Source: an uncultured Gemmatimonadales bacterium
GTDB taxonomy: Bacteria; Gemmatimonadota; Gemmatimonadetes; Gemmatimonadales; JACORV01
Direction: 5' to 3'
NCBI GenBank assembly: GCA_963729955.1
Contig: CAVSQA010000008.1
Coordinates: forward strand, 66,547 to 130,546
DNA length: 64,000 bases
A program made the translations under genes and the position numbers. Shown here in pieces: positions 1-11,389 of the stretch; the stretch's first letter is position 1; the number at the start of each line of letters is the position of its first letter. Below the pieces are notes generated by a model. That model saw only the letters and a program-made list of their open reading frames with translations. It searched no databases and was not told the origin of the DNA.

Positions 1-567
1 GACGACGCGCACTCGGTGGGTGTCCTCGGCGCGACGGGCGCGGGCACGGCGGAGCACTTCGGGATCGTGGACGAGGTGGACCTGATCGTCGGGACCTTCT
101 CGAAGTCGCTGGCGTCGATCGGCGGCTTCGTGGCCGGCCAGGAGTACGTGATCCACTACCTGAAGCATCACGCGCGGCCGCTCATCTTCTCGGCGGCCCT
201 GCCGCCGTCCAACACGGCGGGCGTGCTCGCGGCGCTGGAGATTCTCCAGAGCGAGCCCGAACGCCGCTCGGCGCTGTGGGCGAACACCAAGCTGCTGGCC
301 GACGGCCTGCGGTCGCTGGGCTACGATCTGGGCAAGAGCGAGACGCCGATCATCCCCGTGCTGGTGGGCGAGCTGGAGCAGACCTTCCTGTTCTGGCGGA
401 AGCTGTTCGACGTCGGCGTGTTCACCAATCCGGTGGTGCCACCGGCCGTCCCGGCGTCCCAGTGCCGGCTGCGGGCCAGCGTGATGGCCACCCATACGGC
501 GGACCAGATCCAGTTCGGCCTCGACGCGTTCGCGGCCGTGGGCAGGCAGCTCGGGGTCATCCACTGA
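1..567 (+). CDS. PLP-dependent alpha-oxoamine synthase, serine palmitoyltransferase / 8-amino-7-oxononanoate synthase family (C-terminal ~188 aa; 5' end is upstream of the window)
   Basis: Frame 1 is open from base 1 (DDAHSVGVLGATGAG...). It carries the family PLP-lysine motif GTFSKSLASIGGFVAG. Stop TGA at 565-567. FSKS..GGF looks SPT-like rather than BioF-like, judged from memory and not from a search. Confidence 0.8.
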   Translation, partial: DDAHSVGVLGATGAGTAEHFGIVDEVDLIVGTFSKSLASIGGFVAGQEYVIHYLKHHARPLIFSAALPPSNTAGVLAALEILQSEPERRSALWANTKLLADGLRSLGYDLGKSETPIIPVLVGELEQTFLFWRKLFDVGVFTNPVVPPAVPASQCRLRASVMATHTADQIQFGLDAFAAVGRQLGVIH

Positions 568-584
568 CCCCTGCGGCAACGACC

Positions 585-1697
585 GTGAGGTCGGTCGGCT
601 CCTCGGCCGACCTCCGGGCATTCATCGACTTCCCCTACCGCCACTACCGCAGCGACCCACTCTGGGTCCCGCCGCTGCGCCGGGACGTCGCGACACTCCT
701 TTCCCGCACCGAGAACCCGTTCTTCGAGCACGCCGAGGCGGCGTATTTCCTGGCCGAGGGCCGTGGCGGCGCCGGTGTCGGCCGGATCGCCGCCATCAAG
801 AACGACGCGCACGGCCGGGCCCATCCGGAAGAGGCCGCGGTCGGCTTCTTCGGCCTGTTCGAGTCGATCGACGATCAGGCCGTGGCGGACGCGCTGTTCG
901 CGGCCACGGCGGCGTGGCTCCGCGAGCGCGGGCTCACGGTGATACGCGGGCCGATGAACTTCTCCACCAACGACGAGTGCGGGCTGCTGGTGGACGGCTT
1001 CGGGACGCCGCCCGTGGTGATGATGCCGCACAACCCGCCGTACTACGCCCGGCTGCTCGAGCGGGCGGGGTTCGTGAAGGCGATGGACCTGCTGGCGTAC
1101 GAGGGCGGGCGGGACGCGGTCCCCGCGCGGCTCACGGAGGCCGCCCCCAGGCTCGCCGAACGCCACGGGATCGCGCTCCGCCCGCTCGACGTGAAGCACT
1201 TCTGGAGCGAGGTGGAACGGGTCAAGCTGCTCTACAACCAGGCGTGGGAGAAGAACTGGGGGTTCATCCCCATGACCGACGCGGAGATGAACCACCTCGC
1301 CAGGCAGCTCAGGCCCGTGGTGGTTCCCGACCTCGTGGTATTCGCGTCGATCGGCGAGACCCTCATCGGTTTCGCGATCGCCCTGCCGGACTTCAACGTG
1401 GCGCTGCGCTCCAACCGGTCGGGCCGCCTGTTTCCCTTCGGGCTGCCCCGGATCCTGTGGAACCAGCGGAAGATCCGGCGCGCACGGGTCATCACGCTGG
1501 GCGTGCTGCCGGAGTACCGCCGCACCGGGGCGGATGCGCTGATGTACGAGTGGCTGTGGCGCCACGCTCACGCGCTGGGCTACCCGTGGGGCGAGTCGAG
1601 CTGGATCCTCGAAACGAATACCGCGATGCGCAACGCGCTCGAGCGGATGGGCTTCACCGTCTACAAGACCTATCGGGTGTACGACCGGCGATCGTGA
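585..1697 (+). CDS. GNAT-fold N-acyltransferase-like protein (~370 aa)
   Basis: This is the meaningful part of ORF 276..1697; the part before 567 is out-of-frame overlap with the upstream gene. GTG at 585 is 18 nt after the upstream stop. The C-terminal VITLGVLPEYRRTGADALMYEWL...NTAMRNALERMGF resembles the acyl-CoA-binding core of GNAT enzymes. Confidence 0.6.
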   Translation: MRSVGSSADLRAFIDFPYRHYRSDPLWVPPLRRDVATLLSRTENPFFEHAEAAYFLAEGRGGAGVGRIAAIKNDAHGRAHPEEAAVGFFGLFESIDDQAVADALFAATAAWLRERGLTVIRGPMNFSTNDECGLLVDGFGTPPVVMMPHNPPYYARLLERAGFVKAMDLLAYEGGRDAVPARLTEAAPRLAERHGIALRPLDVKHFWSEVERVKLLYNQAWEKNWGFIPMTDAEMNHLARQLRPVVVPDLVVFASIGETLIGFAIALPDFNVALRSNRSGRLFPFGLPRILWNQRKIRRARVITLGVLPEYRRTGADALMYEWLWRHAHALGYPWGESSWILETNTAMRNALERMGFTVYKTYRVYDRRS

Positions 1698-2680
1698 AGG
1701 CCCTGGTCACCGGCGCTACGGGTTTCGTCGGCAGCCACCTGGCGGCCGCCCTGGTGAAGCGCGGTGACGAGGTGTCCTGCCTCGCCCGACGTCCGGAGCA
1801 GGCCGCCTTCATCGCGTCCCTGGGCGCGCTGATCGCCCCGGGATCCCTGGAGGACGTGGAGAGCCTGAAGGCGGCCCTGCGGGGAGTGGACCGGGTCTAC
1901 CATCTCGCCGGGCTTACCGCAGCCGGCTCGGAGCGGGAGTTCCTCGAGGTCAACGAGGGCGGCACGCTGCGGCTCATCGGCGCCATCCGGGCGTCGGTCC
2001 CCAGCCTCAAGCGCTTCGTCTACGTCTCGAGCCTCGCGGCGGTCGGCCCGACCAGCCGCGGCGCCAGGCTCACCGAGGACACGCCGTGCCGGCCGGTGAC
2101 GGCCTACGGCCGCAGCAAGCTCGCGGGGGAAGCCGTGGTGCGCCGCGCGGCGGGCCTGCCGTGGACCATCGCGCGGCCTCCCGTGGTGTACGGTCCGCGC
2201 GACCGCGAGCTGCTGCGGCTGTTTCGCATCGTGCGGTGGGGATTCGCCCCGGTCTTCGGGAGGGGGCGACAGGAGCTGTCGCTGGTCTACGTGACCGATC
2301 TGGTCGAGGGCATCCTGGACGCCGGCCAGGAGCCGACGGCGCTCGGCCAGACCTACCATCTCGCGCATCCCGAGGTGGTCCGCTCCCGGGACCTCGCGCG
2401 CGAGATCGGCCGGGCGGTCCGCGGCGGGCGCGCTCCGCTCATCGTGCCCGTGCCGGCCGCCGTGGCGGCGCCCATCGTCCGGGTGATCGGGCGGGCGGCC
2501 GCCGTCGCCGGGCGGCGTACCGTCGTCTCGGAGGACAAGCTGGCGGAGTTCCTGGCCCCGGCGTGGGGCACCTCGGTGGCCAAGGCGCAGCGTGAGCTGG
2601 GCTGGCGCCCGCCTCACGATCTCAGGGCCGGGGTCCGAGCGACGGCGGAGTGGTACCGCTCGGAAGGGCTGCTCGACTGA
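1694..2680 (+). CDS. NAD(P)-dependent epimerase/dehydratase-family (extended SDR) reductase
   Basis: This is the real part of ORF 914..2680. GTG at 1694 overlaps the upstream stop (GTGA, 4-nt overlap). Rossmann motif VTGATGFVGSHL at the N-terminus; about 328 aa. Confidence 0.8.
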   Translation: MKALVTGATGFVGSHLAAALVKRGDEVSCLARRPEQAAFIASLGALIAPGSLEDVESLKAALRGVDRVYHLAGLTAAGSEREFLEVNEGGTLRLIGAIRASVPSLKRFVYVSSLAAVGPTSRGARLTEDTPCRPVTAYGRSKLAGEAVVRRAAGLPWTIARPPVVYGPRDRELLRLFRIVRWGFAPVFGRGRQELSLVYVTDLVEGILDAGQEPTALGQTYHLAHPEVVRSRDLAREIGRAVRGGRAPLIVPVPAAVAAPIVRVIGRAAAVAGRRTVVSEDKLAEFLAPAWGTSVAKAQRELGWRPPHDLRAGVRATAEWYRSEGLLD

Positions 2681-2689
2681 CCCAGGTGG

Positions 2690-2715
2690 GTGGCGGCGTC
2701 CCGGCCCGCCGCCAC
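2690..2715. terminator. GC hairpin between convergent genes (possible bidirectional terminator)
   Basis: GTGGCGGCG (2690-2698) pairs with CGCCGCCAC (2707-2715), with an 8-nt loop. It lies in the 39-nt gap between the stops at 2680 (+) and 2720 (-). No T-tract. Confidence 0.35.
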
Positions 2716-2719
2716 GTAC

Positions 2720-3820
2720 TCAGGTCACGGGGGATGGCGCGGCGAGGCCGCCGGCCGCGCCCGCGTAGGCCTCTCCACCGTAGCGAGTCCGCAACTCCCC
2801 CACCCCACCCGGGTCACCCATGACGATGAGGGTGGCACCCTCCGCGATGCGCGTCCGCGGATCGGGCTTGAACGTCCAGGCGGGCGTGCCCGGCTCGAGC
2901 AGCGCCAGGAGCAGGAGGCCGGGCATGGCGTTCACGTCCAGGTCGGCGACCGACTTGCCGATCGCGGGGGAGCCTCGGCCCACCCGCAGCTCCTCCACCC
3001 TGAGGTTGCGATCGCGGTCCCGCAGCATCTTGTCCAGGAACGTCACGACCATCGGGCGGATCATCTCGGAGGCCATCCGCATGCCGCCGATGCGGAACGG
3101 AGAGACCACCGCGTCGGCGCCGGCCCGCCGCAGCTTGGGCTCGTTGCGGTCGTCCACCAGCATCCCGACGATGCGCACCGCCGCATTGGCCTGGCGCGCC
3201 GTCAGGATGACGAGCACGTTGTCGCGATCGGACTCGAGCGCCGCGACCACGCCCGCCGCGCGACCGATCCCGGCTTCCGCGAGCACTTCCTCGTCCGAGG
3301 CGTCTCCCGCGACGTACAGCAGCTCCTCCTCGGTGCTCCGCGGCGGGAGTGCCGTCGCCTGGGGGACGATGGCCACCACCGGACGCCGCGAGCTCATCAT
3401 TTCGTCGATGAAGTGCCCGGCCACGACGCCGGCACCGCACACGATCACGTGACCCTTCAGCTCCGCGATCGCCTGCCGCATACGCTTCCTCCAGAAGACG
3501 TGCTCGAGCTGCCCCTCGACGAAGAACGCCGTGATGGTCGACGCGAAGTAGACCAGGATCCCCATCCCGAACAGGATCAGGACCATGGTGAAGATCCGAC
3601 CCGCCGGATTGTCGTCCATCGGGATGATCTCGCCGTAGCCCACCGTGGTCAGCGTGATCACGGTCATGTAGAGGCTGTCCAGGAGGCGGTGCTTCCCGTG
3701 CCCGATCACGGTGTATCCCGCGACGCCGATGGCGAACACCGCCAGCACGGCGATGCCCGCGGTGGTGAGTCGGCGCCGGACTTCGGCGAGCTGCCGGTCG
3801 GCCTCGGTGAGCCTGTTCAT
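2720..3820 (-). CDS. Potassium channel with cytoplasmic RCK/TrkA-N domains
   Basis: ORF 2720..3844. Selectivity filter TLTTVGYGE between two TM helices, followed by VIVCGAGVVAGHFIDE (Rossmann-like RCK). The start is probably the ATG of MNRLTEA at 3820; the ORF track starts at 3844. Confidence 0.85.
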   Translation of the reverse strand: MNRLTEADRQLAEVRRRLTTAGIAVLAVFAIGVAGYTVIGHGKHRLLDSLYMTVITLTTVGYGEIIPMDDNPAGRIFTMVLILFGMGILVYFASTITAFFVEGQLEHVFWRKRMRQAIAELKGHVIVCGAGVVAGHFIDEMMSSRRPVVAIVPQATALPPRSTEEELLYVAGDASDEEVLAEAGIGRAAGVVAALESDRDNVLVILTARQANAAVRIVGMLVDDRNEPKLRRAGADAVVSPFRIGGMRMASEMIRPMVVTFLDKMLRDRDRNLRVEELRVGRGSPAIGKSVADLDVNAMPGLLLLALLEPGTPAWTFKPDPRTRIAEGATLIVMGDPGGVGELRTRYGGEAYAGAAGGLAAPSPVT

Positions 3821-3937
3821 CCGTGCTCCGTGAAATCCGGGCACAAGCTATACCGTTGACGCCCGGCCCGCCAAACCCCATTCTTTCCGCGCGACATTTC
3901 ACCTGTTCACGCCGTCCGGGACCCGTTCGGAGTAGCC

Positions 3938-5815
3938 ATGACGCTCGCAGATCTGCCTGTTCTCAACCCGTCCACGCCCGGCCGCGAGGCCCGGCGCGCG
4001 ATACTCGTCGCCATCCTGTTCGCCGTCTTCGGCGCGCTGTACGCCCTGGCGCGAGCCGCCGCCGCCGCGCCGCCCGACCTCTCGGCCTCGACCGGCGACG
4101 TGTTCGGGTTCGCCTACCCGCGCGGTTGGGGACTCGCGGTGGCGCTGTGGTCGGGCGCCGCGCGCTGGCCCTCGAGCCTCGCCAGCGCCGAGACGTTCCT
4201 CGCGGTCAGCGCCACCGTCGTCATGGCGGTCGCCCTGATCGTGGTGATGCACCCCGACCTCCTGGTGCGTCAGGGACCACAGTACGTCTCGCCCGCGCGC
4301 CGCATTACGACCGTGGTCGTGGCCTTCGTGATGGCCTTCCTCATGTACCGCCTGGTGATCGCGGTCGACGGCGTGTTCTCCTTCGACACCCTTGCCACGA
4401 ACCCGGACCGGGCGCGCCGCGTGCTGGTCGGGCTGGGCGCGCTCAGCGCCATCGTGTTCGGCGGCATCTGGTCGTTCATCGGACCCAAGGACTTCGGCCG
4501 GCGCATACCGCTGCGGATTTCGCACGGGGCCCTGGGCGGGATTGCGGTGTGGGGCGCGGTGGCACTGGCGACGCTGCTCTCCAGCCAGGCGCGGAGCTTC
4601 CTCTCCAGCACCCTCGATACCTTCTACACCCTGTTGACGGTGGACGCCGCCAACGGGGCGCCGGGGGCCACGGCGGGCTGGGCCGTGTCGTCGGACGTGC
4701 TCACGGCGGCCACCGCGATGGCGCTGGCGGGCTCGCTGCTCATCGTCACGGCCCCGCAGTCGCTCGGCCCCGGCAACCGCCGCGGCAGCGCCATCGTGTC
4801 CGGCGTGGTGGCGCTGTTCCTGATCGTCGTGGCGGCCACCACCTGGAGCACCACCCAGGCGCGGGCGCGCGAAGTCGACGTGAACGTGGTCAGCGCCCTC
4901 CAGCTCGACCGCACGGCTCCGGCCCGCACGCCCGTGCTGCTCGCGGGTGAGAGTCTCTCGCCCGCGCGGCGCCTCGTCGCCCGGCCGTTGATCGAGCCGA
5001 CGACGACGGCGGACGACTGCATGCACCCTGGCGGCGAGTCGCGGGTGCTGCCCGCGCGCACCGAGAACAACGTCCGCAAGCTCACCGAGTGGCTCCAGAC
5101 ACATCAGGGCGAGGTGAGCGGCATGGCGGTCCGCGTGGCGAGCTGTCGCGCGGCGCTGCAGGCGCTGCTGTGGGAGCCGGACTCGGCCCGCGCGGGCATC
5201 TTCCTCAGCTCGCACCCCGAGCGCATCGGCGCCCTGACGTACCTGTACGCCATGGCGGGCATCAGCACGTCGGCCCCGGCCCTCCTGCGCCGGACGATCG
5301 CGGCGCTGGGCGATACGACGCGCTATCAGCACGGCGTCGAGGCCCCGAAGCGCTTCATGGCGCTCGCCCGGCTGGCCGGCGACTCGGCGGCCGAGGCGGC
5401 CTGGCGCCAGCTCATCGTGACGCCGGCCACCGCGCAGGAGATGGCCTCGCTCCCGGCGCGGCCCGCGTACACCGACGGCGTGGTGAGCGGCCGCATCGCG
5501 ACCACCACGCCCGGTTGGCGGATCGCGCTGCTGATCGCCGACGAGCCGGGTGCCGGCAGCGATCCGACGTCGCAAGCCCCGCGCTCCGAAGGCTCCATCC
5601 TGTCCTCGATGGTGACCGCGACCAACGTCGGACCCGACGGCCGGTTCAGCTTCACCGGCCTCAGGGACGGCTACTACCAGCTCGCGCTGTTGTCGCCGAA
5701 CGGGACCGAGATCCCCCGGTTGACCAAGCTGGTGGTGAAGAACGATCCGGGCGTCTTCCAGCTCGCGGCGACCAGGAAGGTCAAGGATGTGGGGACGGTG
5801 ACGTTGACGTACTGA
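3938..5815 (+). CDS. Hypothetical polytopic membrane protein with a C-terminal CarboxypepD_reg-like beta-sandwich
   Basis: Single 625-aa ORF. The first ~330 aa contain many hydrophobic helices. The C-terminus GPDGRFSFTGLRDGYYQLALLSPNG resembles a carboxypeptidase-regulatory-like domain. No catalytic motif recognised. Confidence 0.6.
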   Translation: MTLADLPVLNPSTPGREARRAILVAILFAVFGALYALARAAAAAPPDLSASTGDVFGFAYPRGWGLAVALWSGAARWPSSLASAETFLAVSATVVMAVALIVVMHPDLLVRQGPQYVSPARRITTVVVAFVMAFLMYRLVIAVDGVFSFDTLATNPDRARRVLVGLGALSAIVFGGIWSFIGPKDFGRRIPLRISHGALGGIAVWGAVALATLLSSQARSFLSSTLDTFYTLLTVDAANGAPGATAGWAVSSDVLTAATAMALAGSLLIVTAPQSLGPGNRRGSAIVSGVVALFLIVVAATTWSTTQARAREVDVNVVSALQLDRTAPARTPVLLAGESLSPARRLVARPLIEPTTTADDCMHPGGESRVLPARTENNVRKLTEWLQTHQGEVSGMAVRVASCRAALQALLWEPDSARAGIFLSSHPERIGALTYLYAMAGISTSAPALLRRTIAALGDTTRYQHGVEAPKRFMALARLAGDSAAEAAWRQLIVTPATAQEMASLPARPAYTDGVVSGRIATTTPGWRIALLIADEPGAGSDPTSQAPRSEGSILSSMVTATNVGPDGRFSFTGLRDGYYQLALLSPNGTEIPRLTKLVVKNDPGVFQLAATRKVKDVGTVTLTY

Positions 5816-6001: not shown

Positions 6002-8246
6002 ATGTTCCGTCGCTTGGCACTCACCATCGCGCTGGCGTCGCTGTCCGCCGGCGCTCTCGAGGCGCAAGGCTGGATCCGGCTCGAACACCCGATCCGCGTC
6101 GGTCCCCCCTCGTCGGTCGTGCGCGTCAGCTCCAACGTGCGGACCACGATCGACGGCCGCGTGGCGCGCGTGGAGGTGGAGGAGCAGTTCCGCAACGCGG
6201 GGGGCGCTCTCGCCGAGGGCACCTACCTCTACCCGATGCCGGGCGAGGCCGTCTTCACCGACTTCGCGCTGTGGATGGGCGAGACCCAGGTGCGCGGCGA
6301 GATGATGAACGCCGAGCAGGCACGAGGCGTCTACGAAGACATCGTCCGGCGCCTCAGGGACCCCGCCCTGCTGACCCTCGAAGGCCACGGGCTCATCCGC
6401 GCGCGGATCTTCCCGATCCAGCCGGGTGAGACGCGCAAGGTGGTGCTCCGCTACACCCAGGTGCTCGAGCGGGCCGGCGACGCGCTCTGCGCCTGCGCTA
6501 CGCCATCGGCGACCGGCCGGTGACCGCGGGCCGCGGCTACCTGGACCAGCCCGCGCCGTCGCCGACCGACGCGGTTCCGCTACACCGTCACGGTGCCGGG
6601 CGCCGACGCCTACGGCACCCCCTACTCGCCGACGCACATCGCGTCACGACGCGCCGGGTGGGGGACCGATGGAGATCACGCTCGAGCCCGACGCCTCGGG
6701 CGACGTCGAGATCTTCATCCCGCTGCGCCGCGGGCTGGTCGGCACGAGCGTGGTGACCAACGCCCCCGGCGGCGAGGACGGCTACTTCATGCTGCTCGAT
6801 CGGCTCCCCCCACCGAGGAGGACGCGGCCGGCATCCCGCGCGATCTCACCCTGGTGCTCGACGTGTCCGGCTCGATGTCGGGCGAGAAGATCGAGCAGGC
6901 CAAGGCGGCGCTCCGCCAGACCCTGGCGTCGCTGCGGCCGGCCGGACCGGTTTCGAGCTGGTCGCCTTCTCCACGCGCGTGGTGCAACGTTCCGGGACGA
7001 CTTCACGCCCGCCACGGCCGAGAACGTGCAGGCGGCCCGCGCGTTCCTCGACCGGCTGGTCGCCGACGGCGGCACCAACATCGCCGGCGCGCTCGACGCG
7101 GTGCTCGGCGCGGCCACCGGCGAGCGGAGCGGCTCCCCGTCGTCGTCTTCGTGACCGACGGCCTTCCCACGGTGGGAGAGCAGGCGCCCGACCGGATCGC
7201 GGCGCTCGCCGCGGGGCAGATCGGCCGCGCGCGCATCTTCACCGTCGGCGTCGGCTTCGACGTCAACACCTATCTGCTCGACCGGCTGGCCGTCGAAGGC
7301 CGCGGCAGCGCCGAGTACGTGGCGCCCAACGCCGACATCGAGACGGCGATGAGCGCCGCTGCTCGGCAAGCTGCGGCATCCGGCGCTGGTGAATCTGCGC
7401 ATCGCCGGCGCCCCGGTGTCGCTGGACGCAGACCTATCCCTCGCGCCTCCCCGACCTGTTCTACGGCGAGGAGCTGGTGGTCTTCGGGCGCTACCAGGGC
7501 AGCGGCGCGGGGCCGGTGGTGGTGACGGGCGAGCGGAACGGCCGCACCGAGCGGTTCACGGCCGACGCCGTCTTCCCGGCCAGCGCCGCCGAGAACGACT
7601 TCGTCCCGCGGCTGTGGGCCTCGCGGCGCATCGGCGACCTGACGCGCCAGATCCGGCTCGAGGGCGCTACCCCGAGCCTGGTCGAGGAAGTGCGCAGCCT
7701 CGGGCTCCGCTACGGCATCCTGACCGAGTACACCTCGTACCTGGTGCAGGAGCCGCGGACGGCGTGGAACCTGCCGGCGCCCATGCCGGCGTCGACGGCG
7801 CTCAGGGGCGGCGCCGGCGCGGCGACGATGCAGACCGGCCGCGACGCGTTCGCCAACGCCAAGGCGAGCGCCGCCCTGCGGCGGCGTGTCCACCCTGTCA
7901 GCCGCCGACCACGTCGCCGGCATCCGGGCGAGCGAGCTGGCCGCCGCCGGGGCCCCAGGCGCGGCGACCGTGCGCCGGGTGGCCGGGCGCCTGTTCGTCC
8001 GGACCGACAGCGTCTGGACGGATGCCTCCCAGCGGGACAGCTTGAAGGTGGTGGACGTCGCGCCGTACAGCGACGCCTACTTCGCCCTGGTGCGCGCGCT
8101 GCCGGAGATCGCGCCGTACCTCGCCGTGGGTGACCAGGTGCTGGTGGCGGGCCGGCGGGCGAGCGTGAAGATCACGCGGCGGAGGCCTCACCACCTGGCA
8201 GCCGGGCCAGCTGGAGGCCTTGGTGCGCGCGTTCCGGGGCGTCTAG
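6002..8246 (+). pseudogene. VIT + von Willebrand factor A domain protein, secreted; frame-disrupted as sequenced
   Basis: Signal peptide MFRRLALTIALASLSAGALEAQG. VIT domain in ORF 5882..6523. vWA MIDAS region LTLVLDVSGSMSGEKI and VVVFVTDGLPTVG in 6593..7525. Further pieces are in 6426..7154, 7477..8133 and 7886..8446. The likely true end is ...QLEALVRAFRGV with TAG at 8244-8246. At least 6 frame changes. Confidence 0.75.
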
Positions 8247-8292
8247 CGGTACCGGACGCACGGGGAGAGCTGCAACGACCGACGTCGCCGAG

Positions 8293-8775
8293 TTGTACAC
8301 GCAGTATCACGATTCGCTCGTCCGGCTGCTGTGGCGCCGGACGGGCGATCGTGATCACGCCGAGGACCTGGCGCAGGAGGTGTTCGTCCGCGCGTTGGAG
8401 ACTCCGCCGGCCAACCCGAGGCCGTGGCTGTTCGCGGTGGCGCTGAACCTGGCGCGCGACGACGGGCGCCGGGCGACGCAGCAGGGACGCCGGCTGGAGC
8501 TGCTGCGGGGCGAGAGCGGCGGGGCCGCGCCGCGCCGCCCGACGCGGCGGTGGAGCCGCGGGAACGCGCCGCGGCGGTGCACGCGGCGCTGGCGACGCTG
8601 ACGGAACAGGACCGCGAGGCGCTGCTGCTCAAGGCGGAGGGGTTCGAGCTACGACGAGATCGCGGCGGCGCTCGGCCTCGCCAGGGGAGCGATCGGCACA
8701 ACGCTGGCGCGGGCGCGGCGGAGGCTGGTGGAGGCGTTCCGCGAGCAAGGACAGGTGAGCGATGTCGCACGTTGA
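8293..8775 (+). pseudogene. ECF-type RNA polymerase sigma-70 factor; frame-disrupted as sequenced
   Basis: Region 2 (HAEDLAQEVFVRAL) in ORF 8293..8601. Region 4 (LTEQDREALLLKAEGF, then YDEIAAALGLARGAIGTTLARARRRL) is in two other frames. Stop TGA at 8773-8775. Confidence 0.7.
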
Positions 8776-10091
8776 CGACGGCAAGCTGAACGCGCTGCTG
8801 GACGGCGAGCTGGACGAGCGCGGAGGCGGCCGCGGTCGGCGCCCACATCGCCGAGCTGCGCCGAATGCGCCAAGCGGCTCGAGGACGCCAAGCGCTTCCT
8901 CGCCCAGGCCGCCGACCTGCTCGGCGGCGCTGGAGCTGCCGAGCAGGCGACGGTGAGCGTTCCGGCGGCGCCGGCGAGGCGGGTGTCCAAGACCGCCAGG
9001 GAGGTCGCGATCGACCTCGACGGCGCGACCCAGCAAGAGTCCCGCCATCGGCGCCGACGTGCCCGAGCCGGATGTTTCGCCGTGCGCCCCGCGCCCAGCC
9101 GGAGCGCCACGGGTTCGACTACACGTCCCTCGCCTGGGCCGCGATCATCGTGCTGGCGGTCGGCGTGGGCTTCCTCGCCAACGAGGTGCGCCACGCGCGC
9201 GAGCGGGGCGGCGGCCGCCGGTCCTCCCAGCCCGAACCGCGACGCCCACCGCCACGGCCATCGCGGCGAACGCGCCCGCCGCAGACAAGGCCGCCCCAGG
9301 CTCGCGGGCCCAGGCAGGCGGATCGGGCGTCTCCGCCGGACGCGCGCCCGCGGCGACCGGGAAGCGGCACGGACCGCCGGCCGCCAAGGCCCCGCCGGGC
9401 GAAGGCACCCCGGTGGTGCCAGGCCGGTCGGCCACCGGCATCGGCCACAAGCGGCTGGAGCCGTCGGCACGGAACCTGGCGGCCGCCCGCGCAGCGCCGG
9501 CTGAGACCGAAGGCGTCGTCGATGCGGTGGCGGCCGCACCCGTGGCGGCGAACGCTCCGGTCCCTGCGACGGCGGTATCGTCCGCGGCGCAGCGGCCGCG
9601 CCCGGCGGCCGAGGCTGAGGCCGGCGTCGCCGCCGGCGGAGGCGGGCGGCGCGCCCCCGCGCGTCGGCCAGCCGGCCGCCTCCGTCCCGCGACGTGTTCC
9701 GTCGTGTCGTCGCTCGAGCAGGCGGTCAGCCACCTCCAGGGCACCATCCGCCTGATTGACGGGATGCACAGCGACCGCGTCGAAATCGGCCCGGGACGCC
9801 AGGTTCCCGGCGCCGACCGCGGGCGCGACGTGGTGCGGGTGATCTACGTCGAGCCGGGCCACGAGCTGGTGCTCGACCAGCAGCGCATCGCCGGACCGGA
9901 TCGCGGCGGCCCCGACCGGGCACCGGGACGCCCTGCAGACGTCCCCAGGAGCCGCGTCCGGGGAGGTGCTGACGACCGCACCGGACGGCGAGCGGCGGCT
10001 GCGCTGGGTGGGGCCGGACGGCTTCTGGCTCTCGCTGGCCGGACGCGTGCCGCCGGACTCGCTGCGGTCGCTCACCGAGCGGGTGCGCTAG
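8762..10091 (+). pseudogene. Anti-sigma factor (zf-HC2-like N-terminus, one TM helix, Pro/Ala-rich linker, C-terminal domain); frame-disrupted as sequenced
   Basis: ATG at 8762 overlaps the sigma gene by 14 nt. MSHVDDGKLNALLDGELDE is followed, after a frame change, by HIAEC.ECAKRLEDAKRFL. TM helix LAWAAIIVLAVGVGFLA is in frame 8865..9755. The end ...PDSLRSLTERVR has TAG at 10089-10091. Confidence 0.6.
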
Positions 10092-10108
10092 CGACCGCCG
10101 CCAACGAG

Positions 10109-10139
10109 CGCGCCCGGCGGAGCGACTCCGCCGGGCGCG
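10109..10139. terminator. Strong GC hairpin between convergent genes
   Basis: CGCGCCCGGCGGAG (10109-10122), loop CGA, CTCCGCCGGGCGCG (10126-10139): a perfect 14-bp stem. It lies between the anti-sigma stop (10091) and the flavoprotein stop (10174). Confidence 0.5.
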
Positions 10140-10173
10140 TGCTGTCTCCGCCGATGCCCGCGTCCGCGCCGCC

Positions 10174-11389
10174 TCAGGCGCCCTCGACGGACTCCCCGGC
10201 GGCGATGCCCTGCTGCAGTTGATCGAACTCCGCCGTCCGGTTCGCCGACGCCAGATTCACCATCACCGCCCCGGCCAGCTTGTGGCCGCGGACGTAGAGC
10301 GCGGTGAAGTTCGGCGCCGCCAGGTCGGTGCTCGCCCTTGATCTGGACGACTGTCCGGCCTGTCGGTGTCCCCCAGCACGTTGATCGTGACGTCGAACAG
10401 GTCGGAGAAGAACGCCGACTGGTGGAGGTAGGTCTCCTCCGCGCCGGCCATGTTGCGGCCCGCCTGCTTGCCCTGCGCGAGCGCGTTGTCCCAGTGCTCC
10501 AGCCGCCGCGGCTGGCGCGTCACCGGGTCCGGGAAGCGGGCGATGTCGCCCGCCGCCCACACGTTCGCGCCGTTGGTCTCGAGCCGCACGTTCACGACCA
10601 CGCCGCCCCGGTCGATCGCGAAGCCGGAGTTGGCCAGCCACTCGGTGTTCGGCTCCGCTCCCGACGCCCGCGACCACCACGTCGGCCGGGTACTGCTCGT
10701 CGGTCTCCGTGGCGACGCCGGCCAGCTTGCCCGCCGCCGGCCTTGACGCGGGCCACGCGCACGCCGGTCTTGACCGTGACGCCGTGGCTCTCCAGCATGC
10801 GCTGGAAGAAGTCGGAGAGGCTGAGGATCCGCGAACCGCCCGTACACCGCGGCCCCATCTCGAGGACGGTGACCTCGGCGCCCGAGGCCGGCGCGCCGTC
10901 GCCGCGACCTCCATCCCGACGAAGCTCCCGCCCACGACCACGACCTTGACGCCGGGCTTCAGGACCGCCTTGAGCGCCGTGCTCTCGCCCACGGTGCGCA
11001 GCAGGTAGACGCCCGGCGTGTCCGCGCCCGGCACGGCGAGCCGCCGCGCGTGGGAGCCGGTCGCGAGCAGCATCTGGTCGTACTCCAGCCGCTCGCCGCT
11101 GGCCAGCGTCACCGACTGCCTTCTTCATGTGGACCGACTTGGCCTCGACGCCCAGCCGGTAGCGGACGCGGTTGTCGCGGTACCACAGCGCGTCGTGGAT
11201 GCGCACCGTCTCGAGCTGCTCGCGCCCGGCGAGGTAGCCCTTGGAGAGGGGCGGACGATGGTAGGGCAACTCCCGTTCCGCGCTGACGACGGTGATCTCG
11301 CCGTCCTTGTCCAGATCGCGGATGCCCTCGATGGCGCTGGCGGCCGCCAGGCCGCCGCCCACAATCACGTACCGGCTCATGGCTGACAA
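10174..11389 (-). pseudogene. FAD/NAD(P)-dependent pyridine-nucleotide-disulfide oxidoreductase (AIF/ferredoxin-reductase-like); frame-disrupted as sequenced
   Basis: N-terminus RYVIVGGGLAAASAIEGIR (FAD fold) in ORF 10592..11389. The second dinucleotide fold VVVVGGSFVGMEVAA is in 10174..11112. NVWAAGDIARFP is in 10263..10847. AAGGAG RBS lies 25 nt downstream of the actF stop. Confidence 0.75.

Follow-up and report, generated by a model that had tools for sequence, protein, structure and literature searches.

Does a short three-gene operon in an uncultured Gemmatimonadota bacterium encode a pathway for ceramide synthesis? The operon occupies positions 1-2680 of a 64,000-nucleotide stretch of DNA from an uncultured Gemmatimonadales bacterium (GenBank assembly GCA_963729955.1, contig CAVSQA010000008.1, positions 66,547 to 130,546; hereafter, the window). 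It encodes a serine palmitoyltransferase (Spt)-like alpha-oxoamine synthase (AOS; gene 1), a GNAT-type acyltransferase-like protein (gene 2) and a reductase of the extended SDR family (gene 3). A sequence-only reading of this DNA had compared the three genes with the bacterial ceramide route formed by Spt, bCerS and CerR. Our analysis supports this comparison and raises its domain assignments to family-level homology: the operon is quite likely a Gemmatimonadota (dihydro)ceramide synthesis operon homologous to the bacterial Spt-bCerS-CerR pathway. The evidence consists of homology, predicted fold, conserved catalytic motifs and cross-phylum synteny. Substrates (serine and acyl-CoA), product, reaction order and all of the chemistry are what we infer for these enzymes.

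Operon organization

The window has a G+C content of 72%, and its nearest relatives are Gemmatimonadales metagenome-assembled genomes. Open reading frames (ORFs) and direct reading of the sequence place all three genes on the plus strand, as had been claimed. Gene 1 (spt; 1-567, +, frame 1; Pfam family PF00155) is cut by the window start, so that 188 codons and a TGA stop remain as the 3′ part of the synthase gene. Gene 2 (585-1697, +) runs from GTG at 585 to TGA at 1697 and encodes a 370-aa bCerS-like N-acyltransferase of the YghO/CC_1154 family with a predicted tandem GNAT fold. Its start at 585 is supported by close homologues of 370-372 aa, which align over 100% of gene 2. Gene 3 (1694-2680, +; PF01370) runs from GTG at 1694 to TGA at 2680 and encodes a 328-aa CerR-like extended SDR reductase. 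Apart from the cut in gene 1, the three genes are intact.

The spacer between genes 1 and 2 (568-584, +) is 17 nt when read from the sequence, one less than the 18 nt given previously, and the same junction is an 11-nt gap in the related locus L001 and a 4-nt overlap in locus L090 and in Streptomyces. Genes 2 and 3 share the previously described GTGA stop/start overlap at exactly 1694-1697 (+), and gene coordinates reveal an identical 4-nt overlap in L001, L003, L090, L092 and a Streptomyces plasmid. This overlap suggests translational coupling of genes 2 and 3, and the tight spacing as a whole points to co-transcription of the operon. A promoter and terminator scan of window positions 1-4200 found nothing exceeding shuffled expectation.

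Gene 1 is related to serine palmitoyltransferases

The gene 1 fragment matched the class I/II aminotransferase family (PF00155, E 2e-24). It contains a DDAHS motif (1-15) and a GTFSKS motif, whose pyridoxal phosphate (PLP)-binding Lys is encoded at 103-105, and both align with the matching motifs of Sphingobacterium multivorum SPT. An alpha-oxoamine synthase fold with the PLP lysine and a D-x-H PLP-contact motif is thus present. SerpalmtaseCFB was the best NCBIfam model for the fragment (245 bits over 185 residues).

Family scores were taken with the full-length orthologue in L001 (413 aa, 96% identical to the window fragment) in place of the cut-off gene. This orthologue scored 538 bits with SerpalmtaseCFB, followed by SerpalmtaseBetaP (412), BioF (400) and Kbl (380); SerpalmtaseAlphaP reached only 337 bits. 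In the PDB, its top characterized relative was S. multivorum SPT (3A2B, 8GUH) with 439 bits. Thermus BioF/Kbl (312), Sphingomonas SPT (310), Kbl (270), the cysteate-C-fatty acyltransferase CapB (28eh; 238), ALAS (206) and CqsA (135) came behind, such that no non-SPT enzyme in the PDB exceeded 312 bits.

A neighbor-joining tree of a small sample of 15 taxa, with the full-length orthologue standing in for gene 1 and bootstrap values calculated on bipartitions, placed the Gemmatimonadota synthases in a clade of their own, which joined the CFB/S. multivorum SPT group with 93% bootstrap support. All Spt-type proteins were split from E. coli BioF and Kbl at 100%. The earlier SPT-like assignment of gene 1 is supported by both score and tree position, and when placed among SPT, BioF and Kbl the enzyme falls with SPT. 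By homology, gene 1 would use L-serine and a long-chain acyl thioester to form 3-ketodihydrosphingosine.

Gene 2 belongs to the YghO/bCerS family

Pfam detected a weak C-terminal GNAT match alone in gene 2 (26.9 bits), and single-sequence searches of PDB and NCBIfam gave no useful match. E. coli YghO also lacks an NCBIfam model, so a missing model says nothing about the membership of gene 2. A search for the exact protein sequence found no record. The family is large, with more than 7,800 matches. Gene 2 was 37% identical to E. coli YghO (E 2e-77, 100% coverage), 35% identical to the N-acetyltransferase "aca" of Sphingomonas parapaucimobilis, and 42% identical to the GNAT protein of a homologous Streptomyces trio. 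The S. parapaucimobilis aca gene sits in a cluster with genes for a reductase, an acyl carrier protein (ACP), Spt and LptF/G paralogues. A profile built from 40 Gemmatimonadota gene 2 proteins gave scores of 288 and 293 bits for E. coli YghO and Sphingomonas aca, respectively.

An AlphaFold model of gene 2 (pLDDT 88.6, pTM 0.88) was compared with the PDB by Foldseek, and matched the tandem-GNAT enzymes MshD, a clavulanate tandem GNAT, FemX and Eis, with E values down to 8e-12. The predicted fold is that of a tandem GNAT of the acyl-CoA N-acyltransferase type. Together with YghO homology, this model agrees with the GNAT-fold N-acyltransferase assignment made earlier. Orthologues for dihydroceramide synthesis, designated aca, were reported to be CC_1154, yghO (ECD_02850) and DRN02_007910 (PMC9386255), and the Caulobacter ceramide synthase is CCNA_01212 (PMC10865984); CC_1154, CCNA_01212 and bCerS are the same protein. 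A relationship of gene 2 to bCerS-type acyltransferases was thus found through these YghO/aca orthologues rather than through CC_1154 itself. Gene 2 adjoins an AOS gene in 74 of 80 GTDB loci, and in E. coli, Sphingomonas and Streptomyces its homologues are likewise part of spt clusters. A role in N-acylation of a sphingoid base would be consistent with these relationships.

Full-length gene 2 homologues, the E. coli, Sphingomonas and Streptomyces proteins above among them, were found by a translated search of plasmid records. In the same search, proteins of 39-40% identity on megaplasmids of Roseomonas spp. (plasmid matches H4, H5 and H14-H16) were labeled "dATP pyrophosphohydrolase", which looks like a propagated misannotation of a YghO/bCerS-family protein.

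Gene 3 is a CerR-like reductase

Gene 3 matched the Epimerase family (PF01370, E 8.5e-36). Its Rossmann motif TGATGFVG (GxxGxxG) starts at 1709, and the catalytic YxxxK residues are Tyr138 (2105-2107) and Lys142 (2117-2119), both invariant across 24 operon-linked SDRs (alignment A2). Gene 3 shares 41% of its residues with the SDR of the Streptomyces trio, 32% with Sphingomonas "epi" and 29-30% with E. coli "epi". Previously named epi orthologues are CC_1164, ECD_02852 and DRN02_007875 (PMC9386255), of which CC_1164 corresponds to CCNA_01222, the Caulobacter CerR reference.

Extended SDRs resemble one another in general, and specificity was therefore tested with a profile of the 24 trio SDRs. 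It scored 274 bits with the Streptomyces trio SDR, 213 with Sphingomonas epi and 199 with E. coli epi; among 177,635 PDB sequences, the best match was 164 bits (3wj7) and the next was 132 bits or lower. The profile thus ranks the CerR orthologues over every PDB chain, in agreement with the epimerase-family NAD(P) reductase proposed from the sequence. NDUFA9-type proteins were among the PDB matches of gene 3. Caulobacter CerR was reported to be periplasmic (PMC11087976). The N-terminus of gene 3 is the Rossmann motif itself, and no signal peptide is visible in it.

Conservation of gene order

Gene order was examined in 80 species-level GTDB genomes retrieved with gene 2. The AOS, GNAT and SDR genes were colinear on one strand in 63 of these loci, Eisenbacteria included, and a synthase gene was adjacent to gene 2 in 11 more. 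Recurrence of the same order in 63 of 80 species-level genomes indicates that this arrangement is not due to chance. In Cytophagia and Bacteroidetes loci (L060, L065, L077 and L081), the AOS and GNAT genes were adjacent and the SDR gene was upstream on the opposite strand. The AOS-GNAT-SDR order with overlapping genes was also present on a plasmid of Streptomyces sp. NBC_01001 (NZ_CP108712.1).

Gene 2 homologues of 78-85% identity were available on long contigs, in which downstream gene order agreed with that of the window: a K+ channel, a 625-aa protein without Pfam domains, a VIT-VWA protein and an extracytoplasmic function (ECF) sigma/anti-sigma pair. The operon starts with the synthase gene in these close relatives; a divergent PAP2 phosphatase-family gene lies upstream of it, and FeoAB and complex I genes lie farther out. 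More distant relatives (L090, L092) had the same upstream pattern, with FeoAB or peptidase genes beyond PAP2. Pfam calls identified no ACP, acyl-CoA/ACP synthetase or AMP-ligase gene within 8-10 kb upstream of spt in the syntenic relatives. The suggestion that an ACP or acyl-CoA synthetase gene might lie 5′ of the operon is contradicted by these relatives, where the divergent PAP2 gene takes this place. Judged on the same relatives, the operon also lacks the ACP and acyl-ACP synthetase genes beside spt that mark the five-gene Rhodobacteria type.

The divergent PAP2 (PF01569) gene lies outside the window, at 7988-8719 (minus) in L001, 5962-6690 in L092 and 6038-6718 in L090. Besides the closest relatives, about 20 other loci have it in divergent orientation to spt. 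In the encoded protein, the N-terminus resembles a signal peptide and a CAPCD motif is conserved; the protein may be a lipid phosphatase tied to the pathway.

Proposed pathway and alternative explanations

By analogy with characterized enzymes, gene 1 would act as a CFB-type PLP-dependent serine palmitoyltransferase that converts L-serine and a fatty acyl thioester to 3-ketodihydrosphingosine. Gene 2 would then N-acylate the long-chain base and gene 3 would reduce the 3-keto group with NAD(P)H. Acyl-CoA is the probable thioester donor, given that the operon comes with neither a dedicated ACP (AcpR) nor an acyl-ACP synthetase (AasR). CFB-type SPTs take acyl-CoA. As for the order of the last two steps, acylation before reduction was argued for Caulobacter (PMC11087976) and the reverse order was proposed by others.

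Several observations weigh against assignment of the operon to ceramide synthesis. Full-length gene 1 orthologues scored 538 and 542 bits, under the 640-bit NCBI equivalog cut-off for CFB-type SPT (NF047600); this cut-off is tuned to the CFB group, and gene 1 is best called Spt-like rather than a strict equivalog. The N-terminal active-site residues of gene 1 are known from orthologues alone, and serine specificity is not readable from sequence, with close SPT relatives taking cysteate or alanine. With gene 3 as a single query, the margin was thin, i.e., 98 and 93 bits to CerR orthologues vs. 87.6 to 3wj7. Caulobacter bCerS and CerR are linked to genes 2 and 3 by way of their published orthologues in E. 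coli and Sphingomonas (PMC9386255). In addition, a head-group gene usual in relatives (see below) is missing here, and the literature searched contained no biochemical or lipidomic report of Gemmatimonadota sphingolipids.

The same pathway logic could also operate on a different amino acid (cysteate, alanine or glycine), yielding a capnine/sulfobacin-type sulfonolipid or a 1-deoxy-ceramide-type lipid. The synthase scores under the SPT equivalog cut-off (538 vs. 640 bits) are compatible with this idea, substrate specificity is not readable from the available residues, and abundant 1-deoxy- and sulfono-ceramides made by Spt-like enzymes were described in environmental bacteria (ISME J 2024). However, CapB scored 238 bits vs. 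439 for a bona fide SPT, no cysteate synthase-like (CapA-like) gene was among the Pfam calls for the relatives' flanks, and in Sphingomonas and E. coli the homologues of genes 2 and 3 are members of genuine sphingolipid clusters. We consider use of another amino acid unlikely, and the capnine/CapB route that had been raised as an alternative is disfavored by the same scores and flanks. Still less likely, in our view, is that the trio makes a soluble or specialized N-acyl amino-alcohol, such as a signal or an antibiotic precursor, instead of a structural membrane sphingolipid. Downstream of the Streptomyces plasmid trio is a condensation-domain protein, a setting reminiscent of secondary metabolism, and other alpha-oxoamine synthases, e.g., CqsA, yield signaling molecules; but CqsA scored only 135 bits, no nonribosomal peptide synthetase, polyketide synthase or tailoring genes are nearby, and almost all of the Gemmatimonadota sampled keep the operon in one chromosomal setting of housekeeping genes (complex I, FeoAB, K+ channel). 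Such conservation suits a core envelope function.

One further reading, in which gene 1 encodes a plain biotin (BioF) or threonine-catabolic (Kbl) enzyme and has nothing to do with its neighbors, is effectively refuted. The NCBIfam scores of these two families are still high (400 and 380 bits), as expected inside one superfamily, but both fall under the family cut-offs and far under the SPT score. The 100% bootstrap split from E. coli BioF and Kbl, the lack of bio or tdh genes in the flanks of the relatives examined and the linkage to GNAT and SDR genes, conserved across phyla, all stand against it. A ceramide operon thus accounts for the three genes with the highest probability among the explanations considered.

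Comparison with known systems

Caulobacter crescentus Spt (CC_1162), bCerS (CC_1154/CCNA_01212) and CerR (CC_1164/CCNA_01222) represent the same three enzyme families as the window proteins. The chemical logic of condensation, N-acylation and 3-keto reduction is shared, and homology is traced via the E. coli and Sphingomonas orthologues. Unlike the Caulobacter system, the window-type operon has no dedicated AcpR or AasR, judging by the relatives' flanks, and no LptF/G paralogues nearby. Its Spt is of the CFB type and not of the alphaproteobacterial type (SerpalmtaseAlphaP, 337 bits). The window genes form one tight operon, whereas Caulobacter bcerS is several genes away. Identity of the window proteins to proteobacterial orthologues is only 29-44%.

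S. multivorum SPT and the gene 1 orthologue were 51% identical over a trimmed alignment of 393 columns and shared the DDAHS and GTFSKSLAS PLP motifs and a PVV(P/S)PAVPA loop. In contrast to S. multivorum SPT, the Gemmatimonadota synthases form their own clade and lie under the CFB equivalog cut-off. Among Bacteroidota, the sphingolipid makers examined to date do not have the three genes near one another (PMC11334938).

The operon of Streptomyces sp. NBC_01001 (NZ_CP108712.1) has an identical order and overlapping genes, and showed the highest cross-phylum identities (GNAT 42%, SDR 41% and AOS 52% on the fragment). It is plasmid-borne and followed by a condensation-domain gene, whereas in Gemmatimonadota the operon lies on the chromosome and a PAP2_3 gene usually comes next. 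This trio (L087, 4748-9274) is carried by a 666-kb linear plasmid, and the condensation-domain gene comes directly after it, a hint that actinomycetes may modify the product.

In E. coli, the yghO-aasR-epi-acpR-spt cluster (BL21 ECD_02850 to ECD_02854) encodes YghO (37% identical), epi (29-30%) and Spt (44%), and RefSeq labels the synthase gene spt, serine palmitoyltransferase. It is of the five-gene Rhodobacteria type, with AcpR, AasR, LptF/G paralogues and a divergent yghO. This cluster had already been described for BL21 (PMC9386255); we found an E. coli sphingolipid-type cluster in 4068 of 5426 complete E. coli genomes. One representative (L085, 2337-10116) contains lptF/lptG paralogues, spt, acpR, epi, aasR and yghO beside glcC.

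The capnine enzymes CapB and CapC resemble the window system in pairing an alpha-oxoamine synthase with a reductase, with a fatty acyl thioester as substrate. The window operon differs from the capnine pathway in having a GNAT partner of the ceramide-synthase family; CapB is also the weaker match, and no cysteate synthase-like gene was seen in the flanks of the relatives.

A fourth gene in related operons

In 57 of the 60 related loci with enough downstream sequence, a gene for a PAP2_3 membrane protein directly followed the reductase gene (e.g., L092, 10104-10976; L090, 10093-11007; L005, 8096-8917). The protein matched Pfam PAP2_3 (PF14378) at 57-73 bits (cut-off 27), and PAP2_3 was also the best Pfam match of a fragment of yeast inositol phosphorylceramide (IPC) synthase AUR1 (PDB 9vj3). 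A single PAP2_3 protein sequence from the relatives had no match in the PDB, and a PAP2_3 profile gave only weak PAP2-motif matches there (LpxE, E 0.004; AUR1, E 0.25). The AUR1 link is therefore one of shared Pfam family only, and a ceramide phosphotransferase role is a hypothesis. The PAP2_3 protein may attach a phospho-head group to ceramide. We know of no characterized bacterial AUR1-type transferase that places a phospho-head group on ceramide, and the literature searched contained no paper on PAP2-spt operons.

No PAP2_3 match was found anywhere in the 64-kb window. The gene was absent from the closest relatives (L001 to L004) as well, and present in the next relative, L005. This distribution indicates that the lineage of the window carries a reduced, three-gene form of the operon. 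A broader proposal is that Gemmatimonadota are near-universal sphingolipid makers with a self-contained, ACP-independent operon, usually of four genes (spt, bcerS, cerR and an AUR1-type PAP2_3 head-group transferase), and that PAP2_3 was lost in the window lineage. We put this forward tentatively, as a possibility that we would not yet favor over its negation. If it is true, the window lineage makes free ceramide or decorates ceramide in another way, e.g., via the divergent upstream PAP2.

Clusters of Spt, bCerS and CerR genes were predicted in 9, and later in about 40, bacterial phyla, with Spt-like genes likewise in about 40 phyla (PMC11334938). The type of pathway is therefore already known; the text of that paper does not mention Gemmatimonadota by name. 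The window operon is a predictable further instance of the known ceramide system and not a new pathway type, and the known pathway logic is unchanged. If the assignment is right, an abundant, poorly cultured soil phylum makes ceramide-type lipids via a minimal three-gene module without a dedicated ACP, which would extend the growing view of sphingolipids as widespread in bacteria. The trio would likewise be a small cassette with which ceramide could be made in heterologous hosts. Of the leads from this comparison, the PAP2_3 fourth gene that recurs in relatives is the most interesting, and the presence of an AUR1-family gene within the operon of most Gemmatimonadota may point to a bacterial ceramide phosphotransferase.

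Genes adjacent to the operon

The operon is closed by a convergent intergenic region of 39 nt (2681-2719), the spot occupied by the PAP2_3 gene in most relatives. A K+-channel gene (2720-3844, -) is convergent to the operon. Other large genes of the window are ordinary and not lipid-related; they encode an ABC peptide-type transporter, a GH38 mannosidase, a two-component system, an aconitase and a type II/IV secretion ATPase.

The conserved 625-aa protein without a Pfam domain (3938-5815, +) apparently consists of a multi-pass membrane N-terminal half and a soluble C-terminal half, and occupies the same place relative to the operon and the K+-channel gene in L001, L003 and L092. Genes up to position 5815 are intact. 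In the adjacent region (6002-11380), comparison with intact L001 orthologues revealed three consecutive genes broken over two or three frames: a VIT-VWA gene (about 6002-8243), an anti-sigma factor gene (about 8762-10088) and a Pyr_redox_2 oxidoreductase gene (10183-11380, -). These frame splits suggest assembly indel errors or gene decay.

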